DNA of 32,000 nucleotides, taken from positions 4,484,740 through 4,516,739 of the forward strand of contig NZ_CP171968.1 of assembly GCF_044054585.1 (NCBI RefSeq), in the 5' to 3' direction. The notes under the pieces were generated by a model that was not told the origin of the DNA, did no database searches, and saw nothing but the letters and a program-made list of their open reading frames with translations. Source of the stretch: Arthrobacter sp. UC242_113 (GTDB lineage Bacteria > Actinomycetota > Actinomycetes > Actinomycetales > Micrococcaceae). Position numbers and translations under genes: made by a program. Shown piece after piece: positions 23,113-32,000 of this stretch (within the stretch, counting starts at the first letter, position 1; every line of letters begins with the position of its first letter).

Positions 23113-23144
23113 CTACGGTGACTGCGGCTTACGGTGACTGCGGC
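23113..23144. repeat. 16-bp tandem duplication straddling a stop codon
   Basis: CTACGGTGACTGCGGC (23113-23128) and TTACGGTGACTGCGGC (23129-23144). The second copy holds the last four codons plus the TAA of the minus-strand gene ending at 23129. The first copy is a downstream duplicate with TAG. Confidence 0.85.
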
Positions 23145-23515
23145 GCCGCGCTGTCGGGATGCTCGGGGGTCTTGACGGCCGTCGCGTCGCGGGCGGACGA
23201 CTCGCCGGTTGGCCGGCCGGCGGGCGAATCCTCAGTTCCCGTGTGCTCGCGTCCCGGTTCGGTGCCCTCCTCCTTGATGACGTCCTCGCCCCTGCGGGTG
23301 GTGCTGACGCCGACGTCAGCCGGAGCGGGTGCCGCGTCTTCAGGGGTTTCGTCCGCTCCGGGCTGGGCCGGTTCCTTTAGCGGTGGTTCGCTGCCGAAGG
23401 CCCGGGCTGTCCCCGGTGCGGTGCCCTCTGCGGCGCCCTTTGCGGCGGTTTGCTCGGTTTCCTCGGCCGCGCGCGTTTCCTCGCCGGCGGGGTCAGGCTG
23501 GTTCGTGGGCGACAT
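23129..23515 (-). CDS. acidic, Pro/Glu/Ala-rich intrinsically disordered protein, last gene of the hydrogenase operon
   Basis: 128-aa ORF. A strong SD (AAGGAGAGCAGC) lies immediately upstream of ATG 23515. The start is embedded in the 3' end of hypC with a 23-nt overlap. Composition is low complexity and no motif was recognised. Confidence 0.5.
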   Translation of the reverse strand: MSPTNQPDPAGEETRAAEETEQTAAKGAAEGTAPGTARAFGSEPPLKEPAQPGADETPEDAAPAPADVGVSTTRRGEDVIKEEGTEPGREHTGTEDSPAGRPTGESSARDATAVKTPEHPDSAAPQSP

Positions 23516-23798
23516 GCTGCTCTCCTTGTGGTTGTTGTGCCGGCTGGGATCCGGGGCCGGTGTCCGCCGGGCGGCCCATTAGCTCCAGTCCGTCCATGGC
23601 CTGTTCCGCGCCCGCGGCGTCCACGCGTTCCAGCGCGAAGCCCATGTGGATCAGGACCCAGGTGCCGGGTTCCAGGGGCCCCTCATCCAGCAGCCCGATG
23701 TTGATTTTCCGCTGCACTCCGGCCACATCGACGAGTGCGAGCTGGCCGCCGTACCCCTCGAGGAGTTCAACGACCCTGCCGGGTATTCCGAGGCACAT
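23493..23798 (-). CDS. hypC: HypC/HybG/HupF-family [NiFe]-hydrogenase assembly chaperone
   Basis: It begins with the invariant MCLGIPGRVVEL motif, followed by ...ALVDVAGVQRKINIGLL...PGTWVLIHMGFA. The 101-aa length includes a ~25-aa Pro/Gln-rich C-terminal tail. Confidence 0.88.
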   Translation of the reverse strand: MCLGIPGRVVELLEGYGGQLALVDVAGVQRKINIGLLDEGPLEPGTWVLIHMGFALERVDAAGAEQAMDGLELMGRPADTGPGSQPAQQPQGEQHVAHEPA

Positions 23799-23812
23799 GT
23801 ACAGGCACCGCC

Positions 23813-24320
23813 CTACTTTGACGTGGAAAACAGGTTTGGAGTGGAAGAGTGCGGGCCGAGCAGGGACCCGACGGCGGCGACGGCCTTGGGCACCGCAGCG
23901 GCCACCGCCGGCGAGAGGCCGATCCCTTCGGACAGGTCCGCGGGGACACAGCCCACCACGTACGTGGCCGGCAGGCTGCCACCCATGGACCGAAGCCGGC
24001 CCAGCACTGCCGCCGGGTCCATGCCGTGGGGATCCAGCATGGCCCTGCCGTCCAGGTCCGCCGCGCTGACCCGGAGCACGCGGATGCTGCCCGGAGCCGA
24101 GTTCCCGTCCGCAGGCACAGTGTCCACGAGGACCAGGGTGTCCACGCCGGCGAGGAGATCGTAGGCGAGATGCATGCCCGCGGATGCCGTAGTCCACCAC
24201 GCGGACGCCGGGGGCGAGCGGCTGCGGATGGCCGGCGAGGTGCCGTGCCACCTCGGGGCCGAAGCCGTCGTCGTGCAGGAACAGGTTCCCGACGCCTGCC
24301 ACGAGGACGCCGGCGGTCAC
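23813..24320 (-). pseudogene. hupD: hydrogenase maturation endopeptidase (HupD/HyaD/HycI family) interrupted by a +1 nt frameshift
   Basis: The N-terminal 47 codons (GTG 24320; VTAGVLVAGVGNLFLHDDGFGPEVARHLAG...VRVVDYGIRG) are in one frame. The remainder (MHLAYDLLAGVDTLVLVDTV...LDPHGMDP..., track ORF 23813..24175) is in another frame. The junction reads atc cgc ggG c atg cat. Removing one G restores ...VVDYGIRGMHLAYDLL..., which aligns without gaps to E. coli HyaD ...IVDGGTQGLNLLGYV.... Confidence 0.8.
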
Positions 24321-30335: not shown

Positions 30336-30363
30336 TGTCTTTGCCTGTCTGGAATTGGGTGGG

Positions 30364-31422
30364 TTACCAGGTGCGCCGGGCCCCGGTGAGGAGCTCGGGT
30401 CCGGGCCGGCGCCACTTGGGCTCCTGGTCCAGGGTGTGCGTCGTGATGCCCCGCAGGGTCCGGATGGCGGAGCCGTAGGGCCGGATGGTGCTGGTGGAAA
30501 GCTTGCCGCCGGGAGGCTCATCCATGAAGGGCATGAACTTGTCCGGGAAGCCGGGCATGGTGCAGCCGATGCAGATGCCGCCGACGTTGGGGCAGCCGCC
30601 GATGCCGTTCATCCAGCCGCGCTTGGGCACGTTGCACTTCACCACGGGGCCCCAGCAGCCGAGCTTGACGATGCACTTGGGGGACCCGTACTCGGTGGCG
30701 AAGTCGCCTTGCTCGTAGTAGCCGGCCCGGTCGCAGCCTTCATGGACCGTCTTGCCGAACAGCCACGTGGGTCGCAGTGCCTCATCCAGCGGAATCATCG
30801 GTGCCTGGCCGGTGGCCTGATAGAGCAGGTACGTCATGGTTTCGGAGAGGTTGTCAGGCTGGATCGGGCATCCGGGAACGCAGACGATGGGGATGCCGGC
30901 CTTGGACTTCCAGTCGTAGCCGAGGTAGTCCGGCACGCCCATGGCGCCGGTCGGGTTGCCGGCCATGGCGTGGATGCCGCCGTAGGTTGCGCAGGTTCCG
31001 GCGGCGATGATCGCGGTGGCCTTGGGTGCCAGGCGGTCCAGCCACTCGCTGGTGGTGATGGGCTGGCCGGTCTCGAGGTCGTTGCCGAACCCGCACCAGT
31101 AGCCGCCGGGGTCATGGAGTTTCTCGTTGGGAATGGATCCCTCGACCACCAGCACGAACGGTTCAAGTTCCCCCCGGTCCGCCTTGCGGAACCATTCCAG
31201 GAAATCGTCGGCCCCTTCCTGCGGGCCGCATTCGAAGTCGATCAGTGGCCAGTGCATGGCGATCTTCGGCAGGCCGGGCAGCGCCCCGAGGGCGATTTCT
31301 TCGACGCTCGGCTGGCTGGCCGCGGTCAGGGCGACCGAGTCGCCGTCACAACTGAGCCCTGCGTTGATCCACAGCACGTGGATGAGGGCTTCTTCGGCCT
31401 TGAGGGAAGTTTCCGTAGGCAT
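30364..31422 (-). CDS. hhyS: [NiFe]-hydrogenase small subunit, group 1h/5, no Tat signal peptide
   Basis: Fe-S ligand regions are present: LSCDGDS, GTCATYGG, CVPGCP, and KLGCWGPVVKCNVPKRGWMNGIGGCPNVGGICIGCTMPGFPD. The N-terminus MPTETSLKAEEALIHVLW lacks an RRxFxK motif. AAGAGG SD lies upstream of ATG 31422. Confidence 0.95.
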   Translation of the reverse strand: MPTETSLKAEEALIHVLWINAGLSCDGDSVALTAASQPSVEEIALGALPGLPKIAMHWPLIDFECGPQEGADDFLEWFRKADRGELEPFVLVVEGSIPNEKLHDPGGYWCGFGNDLETGQPITTSEWLDRLAPKATAIIAAGTCATYGGIHAMAGNPTGAMGVPDYLGYDWKSKAGIPIVCVPGCPIQPDNLSETMTYLLYQATGQAPMIPLDEALRPTWLFGKTVHEGCDRAGYYEQGDFATEYGSPKCIVKLGCWGPVVKCNVPKRGWMNGIGGCPNVGGICIGCTMPGFPDKFMPFMDEPPGGKLSTSTIRPYGSAIRTLRGITTHTLDQEPKWRRPGPELLTGARRTW

Positions 31423-31452
31423 CGTTGCCTCTTTCAGTGCCCCTGCCGGGGT

Positions 31453-32000
31453 TCAGTGTGCTTTTGTCAGGGCGCCGGTCAGGGGTTCTGACCCGGCTGC
31501 CCCGGAGGTTGGCGCCGCCGCTTGGGAGGTGGCGCCGTCGAGCCAGCCGTACCAGGCGGCGAGGCCTTCGCCGGTCGCGGCGGACAGCGTGAGGTATTCG
31601 GCCCGCCGATTGATCTGCCGGATGCGGCGCAGGCATTCTTCGACGTCGAAGTCGACGTAGGGGAGCAGGTCCGACTTGTTGACGATCACGAGGTCGGCTG
31701 CCATGAACATGTGCGGGTATTTCTGGGGTTTGTCATCACCTTCCGTTACCGAGACGATCACCACCTTGGCCGTTTCGCCGAGGTCAAAAAGCGCGGGGCA
31801 GACGAGGTTGCCCACATTTTCAATGAAGACCGTGGAGCCGGGCTCCGGGGCCAGCGCATCGAGGCCGTGCCGCAGCATGTCGGCATCGAGATGGCAGCCG
31901 GCTCCGGTATTGATCTGGATGACGGGGCGCCCGGTGGCGCGGATGCGGTCTGCGTCGAGGGACGTCTCCTGGTCCCCTTCGATGACACCCGCGTCCAGGC
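31453..32000 (-). CDS. hypB: hydrogenase nickel-incorporation GTPase HypB, 5' end off the window
   Basis: My translation to the right edge gives [49 protein letters not shown]...[19 protein letters not shown]...[19 protein letters not shown]...[10 protein letters not shown]. This includes the CH motif, ENVGNLVCP and NKxD. The track shows only the part from an internal Met. Confidence 0.9.

Follow-up and report, generated by a model that had tools for sequence, protein, structure and literature searches.

A group 1h [NiFe]-hydrogenase operon of Arthrobacter that lacks HypD, HypE and HypF and is kept under purifying selection

The structural operon of the M. smegmatis Hhy hydrogenase comprises five genes, MSMEG_2722-2718, and ends in hhyE, the role of which has been covered in that organism (PMC6883350); an operon of this extent fits two genes ahead of hhyS. 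At the hhy locus of Mycolicibacterium tusciae (L038), the genes from hypA through hypC are followed, on the same strand, by hypF-hypC2-hypD-hypE and then by a gene for a DUF6390 protein, and the hypF-hypC2-hypD-hypE block is present in mycobacterial, Nocardia and Streptomyces loci. The hydrogenase cluster on pHG1 of Ralstonia eutropha H16, a proteobacterial host, presumably carries its own hypF, hypC, hypD, hypE, hypA and hypB. To our knowledge, no [NiFe]-hydrogenase is considered able to do without HypC, HypD, HypE and HypF. Here we analyse a hydrogenase operon in a 32,000-nucleotide (nt) stretch of Arthrobacter sp. UC242_113 (the window; C1:4484740-4516739). The source genome (5.02 Mb, 6 contigs) is rated 100% complete, and its nearest named relatives are Arthrobacter sp. 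ISL-65, sp. NPDC058192, A. bambusae DS999, sp. ISL-48 and sp. A5.

The Arthrobacter locus has the gene order of M. tusciae from hypA through hypC, the large subunits HhyL are 87% identical, and DUF6390 occurs at both loci; DUF6893 has only a weak partial match in M. tusciae. However, in Arthrobacter the hypF-hypC2-hypD-hypE block is gone from both the locus and the genome, DUF6390 is inverted, an ATP-binding cassette (ABC) importer lies next to it, and hupD, the endopeptidase gene, is frameshifted. The operon is real but not complete, as against a preliminary description of this DNA that had called it complete-looking: it encodes a group 1h [NiFe]-hydrogenase without HypD, HypE and HypF (together HypDEF) and, judged from its substitutions, is kept under strong selection.

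Gene families were assigned by Pfam and NCBIfam profile searches with curated cut-offs. Eleven consecutive minus-strand genes occupy 23129-32000, and hypA lies just outside the window; protein lengths are in amino acids (aa):

C1:4517077-4517400 (window-equivalent ~32335-32661, outside the window, just upstream of hypB): hypA; PF01155, 100.5 bits
31453..32000, minus strand: hypB, 3' part; Pfam cobW and TIGR00073 (206 bits); the full gene extends to window-equivalent 32328, and the full open reading frame (ORF) was read in L003
30364..31422, minus strand: hhyS, [NiFe]-hydrogenase small subunit, 352 aa; Pfam NiFe_hyd_SSU_C and Oxidored_q6; no twin-arginine translocation (Tat) signal
28542..30335, minus strand: hhyL, group 1h large subunit, 597 aa; PF00374; 22-residue C-terminal tail past the last metal-site His
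27282..28538, minus strand: hhyE-type protein with NifU and Rieske-like parts; Pfam NifU 80 bits, Rieske_2 26.8 bits, just below the 27-bit cut-off
26480..27280, minus strand: DUF5947 protein, 266 aa, Cys/His-rich; PF19372, 241.7 bits
25830..26483, minus strand: DUF6084 protein, 217 aa; PF19562, 325 bits
24433..25833, minus strand: conserved 466-aa protein without a family; sole listed Pfam/NCBIfam match Phage_TAC_7, 19.4 bits against a 25-bit cut-off
24317..24436, minus strand: DUF6893 microprotein, 39 aa, one hydrophobic helix; PF21833, 41.5 bits; conserved across Arthrobacter loci
23813..24320, minus strand: hupD endopeptidase gene, frameshifted; the C-terminal part (23816-24175) is a Pfam HycI match, the N-terminal part has no family
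23493..23798, minus strand: hypC, 101 aa, N-terminal Met-Cys; PF01455 (78 bits) and TIGR00074
23129..23515, minus strand: acidic ORF, 128 aa, no family; overlaps the hypC end by 23 nt

The assignment of the enzyme to group 1h (formerly group 5; Hhy-type, Tat-less, cytosolic), also made in the preliminary description, is well supported by sequence, because the match to a solved relative, the L1/L2 motifs and the Tat-less small subunit agree. By far the best structural match of HhyL was the actinobacterial-type hydrogenase HofK/HofG of R. eutropha H16 (PDB 5AA5, chain 5AA5_C, 1069.5 bits); the next PDB chains, from other groups, scored at most 163 bits. The L1 motif RICGICGDNH and the L2 motif DPCLPCGVH are present in HhyL and invariant in 112 relatives, including all four metal-binding active-site Cys residues. 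The N-terminus of HhyS, a protein 93-99% identical among Arthrobacter, has no RR motif and so no twin-arginine leader, a Pfam scan of the operon products gave no cytochrome b family, and a NifU-containing HhyE-type partner, a group 1h trait, is encoded after hhyL. HhyL is also 85-89% identical to large subunits from mycobacterial, Nocardia and Rhodococcus genomes that have the full Hyp set.

Absence of HypD, HypE and HypF

Of the canonical Hyp set, HypA, HypB and HypC are present in the source genome, and HypD, HypE and HypF are absent. A PF01924 search for HypD gave no match in this genome, and TIGR02124 and TIGR00143, used for HypE and HypF, gave only sub-threshold matches to paralogues (at most 25.6 bits). 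When M. tusciae HypF, HypD and HypE were compared with the whole source genome by tblastn, only an acylphosphatase and PurM/ThiL-like noise were returned, and we rejected the idea of HypDEF hidden elsewhere in the genome, since both kinds of search had found such paralogues only. In contrast, the same models scored 417-741 bits for HypD, HypE and HypF in Mycolicibacterium, Rhodococcus and Streptomyces, with HypD at 511-517 bits.

The absence extends beyond the source strain. We sampled 151 Arthrobacter genomes, 29 with the large subunit and 122 hydrogenase-negative, and for HypD also 301 genomes of Micrococcaceae, spread over 38 genera. Neither sample contained HypD; HypE and HypF were found in none of the 28 other hydrogenase-positive Arthrobacter, from which HypD was likewise absent, including the single-contig genomes G018 and G138. 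HypDEF are absent from the source genome and from every hydrogenase-positive Arthrobacter examined. Some of the searched genomes are drafts, and absence from an incomplete genome is not proof; HypDEF could in principle have been missed on unassembled plasmids, in too divergent a form or in absent sequence. We regard this as very improbable, because the source genome is complete in its 6 contigs and empty by tblastn, the two single-contig genomes and the whole family sample agree with it, and the models readily recognize the proteins of three other actinobacterial orders.

It was also considered whether accessory proteins of the locus are HypD, HypE or HypF in disguise. This was rejected: AlphaFold2 (AF2) models of DUF6390 and of the 466-aa protein had no such fold match, and sequence searches of the PDB were empty.

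Selection on the operon and the hupD frameshift

Selection was estimated as the ratio of nonsynonymous to synonymous substitution (dN/dS) by NG86, the values being approximate near a synonymous divergence (dS) of 1. Between the source genome and five relatives (dS 0.1-2.6), dN/dS was 0.02-0.04 for hhyS, 0.03-0.06 for hhyL, 0.03-0.13 for DUF6390 and mostly 0.1-0.25 (range 0.04-0.43) for hypA, hypB, hhyE, the DUF genes, hupD and hypC, with hypC at 0.04-0.18. Median values in Arthrobacter did not exceed those of Nocardia, Mycobacterium and Streptomyces/Actinoplanes for any of 11 genes except hypC, for which Mycobacterium was marginally lower (0.135 versus 0.143). Relaxed selection in Arthrobacter was therefore rejected, as dN/dS is not above that of HypDEF-bearing lineages. 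By these sequence comparisons the genes of the operon and of the island around it (below), including the nickel-insertion genes hypA and hypB, the protease gene and hypC, are shown to have been under purifying selection (dN/dS 0.045 for hhyL) ever since the Arthrobacter copies separated, despite the missing HypDEF.

In 26 of 28 fetched Arthrobacter loci the gene set and order were the same and the reading frames intact, except for hhyL of G010 (L113 3679-5469), where two in-frame TAG codons interrupt an otherwise intact locus and reflect either a real pseudogene or a draft error. In G138, DUF6390 was missing from the 20 kb fetched. The broken loci of G071 and G073 were rejected as cases of decay, since ppc and the transporter are equally fragmented there, which points to poor assemblies. 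The 31 Arthrobacter sequences fall into a single clade of the HhyL tree (98% support), with long-form Rhodococcus and Prescottella as its sister group. The single clade and the purifying selection together imply one event, before the Arthrobacter clade diversified, in which the hypFCDE block was lost or not carried along; the remainder has been held by selection since.

These data bear on the possibility that the cluster is a decaying relic, which lost hypF-hypC2-hypD-hypE, is non-functional and is on its way out. Such a history would accommodate the absence of HypDEF, the frameshifted hupD of the source strain, the TAG codons of G010 and the patchy distribution of the operon (29 of 151 congeners, ~19% of Arthrobacter species). 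We nevertheless consider it improbable. At dS ~1, dN/dS is mostly 0.03-0.2 across all 12 genes and no higher than in HypDEF-bearing lineages, the genes are intact in well-assembled loci, and the loss of hypFCDE is older than the divergence of the 31-member clade; selection combined with so ancient a loss is scarcely what a relic would show.

The same constraint could mean that the operon is functional, yet does not make a canonical NiFe(CN)2CO hydrogenase, the product having a different metal site or serving as a redox or sensing complex. What speaks for this is precisely that the genes stay strongly constrained although no route to the Fe(CN)2CO unit is known other than the missing one. However, neither the four active-site Cys residues nor any position of the two full motifs varies, HypA, HypB and HypC are kept and constrained along with the protease and the C-terminal tail, as maturation of a Ni/Fe site requires, and HhyL remains close (85-89%) to the enzymes of full-Hyp-set mycobacteria, Nocardia and Rhodococcus. 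We think a non-canonical product unlikely.

The junctions between the operon genes had been described as an unbroken chain of translational coupling. All ten distances proved exact (in operon order, gaps of 30, 28, 3 and 1 nt, overlaps of GTGA, ATGA, ATGA and GTGA, a 14-nt gap and a 23-nt overlap), and a sequence scan of the minus strand of the block gave no convincing internal promoter or terminator. Junctions as tight as these are usual in actinobacterial operons of high GC content. The chain, however, is broken at hupD, which is split between two frames: the gene measures 508 nt, not a multiple of three, and the reading frame of its N-terminal part (24320-24177) is not that of its C-terminal part (24175-23813). 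A single additional G at 24177 (GGG instead of GG), absent from the close relatives G002, G114 and Arthrobacter sp. ISL-65, accounts for this; in the other loci compared by tblastn, two poor assemblies excepted, the two parts adjoin without a change of frame. The frame that starts at the hupD GTG stays open to the hypC stop at 23493, and hypC is in the same frame; read-through would thus yield a fusion of the HupD N-terminus, junk and HypC (23493-24320) rather than termination 14 nt before hypC. The assembly as it stands accordingly encodes no intact large-subunit endopeptidase, a member of the canonical Hyp set.

Whether the extra G is real matters for the source strain. A misreading of GG as GGG, which would leave the operon as intact as in the relatives, has an appreciable chance, somewhat short of even: the insertion is a single base in a short G run, and the closest relative, G002, reads GG. 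The 6 contigs with a 4.6-Mb chromosome look like a long-read assembly. Against this, the extra G is the only uncompensated coding indel in ~18 kb aligned with G002 (99% HhyL identity), so that the assembly does not appear error-ridden, and we hold a real mutation to be somewhat the more probable. The mature 5AA5_C chain ends at the residue equivalent to His575 of HhyL, immediately preceding the 22-residue tail, and a broken protease would therefore be expected to leave HhyL unprocessed. If real, the extra G would thus prevent removal of the tail and give an immature enzyme; the strain may have recently lost hydrogenase function, and in that case probably has.

The island, DUF6390 and the importer

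The hydrogenase cluster is part of a ~14-kb island (window ~18.8k to ~32.8k) between ppc and a small conserved gene, which contains a FecCD/BtuC-class importer, DUF6390 and the genes from hypC back through hypA, but no hypF-hypC2-hypD-hypE block. These limits follow from three complete hydrogenase-negative Arthrobacter genomes, in which the end of ppc (window ~18.7k) is directly joined to the gene at ~32.8k. The ppc-adjacent position recurs, ppc being seen within the fetched stretch at 23 of 28 Arthrobacter loci. At the left edge of the island, the intergenic region between ppc and the ABC ATPase gene (18780-19020) has small indels relative to relatives and, according to an earlier reading, 32-bp tandem repeats; it could mark the insertion boundary. 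The island genes next to the operon are:

22276..23049, plus strand: DUF6390 protein; PF19927, 303.6 bits; convergent with the operon; the most conserved accessory gene
19008..22075, minus strand: Type II (FecCD/BtuC-class) ABC importer, with binding protein 20939-22075, permease ~19759-21009 and ATPase ~19008-19823; Pfam Peripla_BP_2, FecCD and ABC_tran

The importer is closely tied to the hydrogenase. An orthologue of its binding protein was found in all 29 hydrogenase-positive and in only 1 of 122 hydrogenase-negative Arthrobacter genomes. The lone exception (G127) is 83% complete and its protein 66% identical, which would fit either an incomplete assembly or an importer persisting alone. 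Every NCBIfam match of the importer was below its curated cut-off, and no substrate could be assigned. In some Arthrobacter loci (L011:16991-18799 and L101:10150-12520), 2-2.4 kb are inserted between hypC and DUF6390; these inserts were rejected as maturation genes, as what they contain, a gene for a thiamine pyrophosphate-dependent enzyme or a fragment of AAA_22, has no connection with the maturation of hydrogenases.

The AF2 model of DUF6390 (predicted local distance difference test score, pLDDT, 82) has a helical N-terminal domain containing the motif PPN..G.CGP, the Cys of which is invariant, and a C-terminal beta-barrel and helix. A fold search in the PDB returned only partial, OB-fold-like matches. 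Comparison of the DUF6390 and HypC profiles by hhalign aligned 26 columns around PGD.V..H with a probability of 43%, a weak local similarity, and the likeness of DUF6390 to HypC is no more than suggestive.

The remaining genes of the operon are widely shared. A synteny comparison across related hhy loci, as the preliminary description had proposed, found the gene order common to more than 100 loci, and the order in the Arthrobacter cluster is hypA-hypB-hhyS-hhyL-hhyE-DUF5947-DUF6084-466aa-DUF6893-hupD-hypC(-acidic ORF). The eleven genes and their order within the window had been given correctly there, all but the 466-aa protein and the acidic ORF now having a family, and the share of the operon without assigned function, put at about 40%, is 38% (3363 of 8871 nt). 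The position of hypB before hhyS had been thought to differ from mycobacteria; this was wrong, since hypA-hypB-hhyS-hhyL is standard at loci of Mycobacterium, Mycolicibacterium (M. tusciae and M. aurum among them), Nocardia and Rhodococcus.

The HhyE-like protein ends in a Pro/Ala/Val-rich tail of variable length: its alignment with relatives breaks off near residue 315 of 418, the remainder being a variable low-complexity extension, and the corresponding 3' part of the gene (27350-27580) has many short indels relative to G002 and G114. The DUF5947 protein, for which a PDB search gave no sequence match, would from its position correspond to M. smegmatis MSMEG_2717, itself homologous to PHG067 of R. 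eutropha (PMC6883350). The DUF6084 protein likewise had no match in a PDB sequence search. The gene for the 466-aa protein is found in nearly all hhy loci; its AF2 model (pLDDT 79.5) combines a beta-sandwich with a helical region and ends in a small barrel, and the fold search gave weak or poor matches, none of them informative. Homologues of the acidic ORF occur in many but not all Arthrobacter loci (it is missing from L012 and L014), with dN/dS ~0.14.

Short-form loci elsewhere and maturation of the enzyme

In the source locus hypC is followed by DUF6390 without hypF, hypD or hypE between them, an ABC importer adjoins, and the genome has no HypD; we call this arrangement the short form. Among 401 Actinomycetes genomes, each at least 90% complete, nearly all hydrogenase-positive ones had HypD. 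The exceptions, 11 of ~115, were two Arthrobacter and nine others, all with 1h-type large subunits, and HypF was absent from all five of the nine non-Arthrobacter genomes in which it was checked. Six loci (L119-L124), taken from these five and from one other exception, are intact but differently arranged. In three of them (L121, L123 and L124, HypDEF-less), hypA follows hupD, beside hypC, and no hypB appeared in the fetched stretch; short-form loci thus come in several architectures.

Of 80 named loci, six outside Arthrobacter had DUF6390 directly after hypC (Blastococcus, Modestobacter marinus, a Propionibacteriaceae metagenome-assembled genome (MAG), Aeromicrobium and two further MAGs), and all six genomes were without HypD; four loci that merely had no hypFDE nearby belonged to genomes carrying HypD elsewhere. 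An ABC importer stands beside DUF6390 in 8 of ~10 short-form lineages, the pairing being found in Arthrobacter, Aeromicrobium, Geodermatophilaceae, Propionibacteriaceae and other lineages. The importer is of the FecCD type in Arthrobacter and the Aeromicrobium group, and Fbp-like with a fused permease in others. Compared with the other short forms, most of which have the Fbp-like importer, that of Arthrobacter is thus distinguished by its FecCD/BtuC importer, by the inverted DUF6390 and by forming a ppc-adjacent island. On the HhyL tree, the short form requires at least 7 changes, at least 3 of them forced by well-supported branches.

Since purifying selection persists in a lineage without HypDEF, we infer that the short-form Hhy cassette still gives a working product, most likely a Ni-containing, H2-oxidising enzyme whose Fe centre would come by a HypDEF-independent route; we put the probability of this at about one half. 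The iron centre would then be supplied without HypD, HypE and HypF, and the prime suspects for its supply would be DUF6390 and the linked importer, because both travel with the short form. More tentatively, and with greater doubt than belief, the sequence comparisons and structural models would be compatible with a widespread subset of group 1h enzymes matured without HypDEF, with the Fe centre obtained by an undescribed route that would use DUF6390 (with its helical domain, invariant Cys and HypC-like barrel) and the dedicated ABC importer.

Several points weigh against a HypDEF-independent enzyme. Assembly of the Fe(CN)2CO moiety is held to need HypC, HypD, HypE and HypF without exception (see PMC11879354), and a search of the open-access literature turned up neither Hhy activity in Arthrobacter, nor a description of group 1h loci that lack HypDEF, nor measurements of activity, expression or cofactor for any short-form organism. 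The models of DUF6390 and the 466-aa protein showed no resemblance to HypD, HypE or HypF in the fold search. DUF6390 and the other uncharacterised genes also occur in HypDEF-bearing loci, and are not simple replacements. One locus of an uncultured actinomycetotan (L084, 16200-21400) has hypC, DUF6390 and an Fbp-like importer followed by hypF, in a genome with HypD; it may represent a stage between the long form and the short one. The NG86 estimates carry the approximation given above, and the hupD frameshift could be an assembly error in the G run.

Surveys of atmospheric-H2 oxidisers score the potential by the hhyL marker alone. If short-form cassettes are active, there would be an unknown way to build or acquire Fe(CN)2CO, which would be of major importance both for the study of how metalloenzymes are made and for producing O2-insensitive hydrogenases in heterologous hosts. 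If, on the other hand, they are inactive as hydrogenases, about one-tenth of the hhyL-positive Actinomycetes sampled (11 of ~115) would have been miscounted as H2 scavengers, including all hydrogenase-positive Arthrobacter, and the conserved proteins they encode must do something else.

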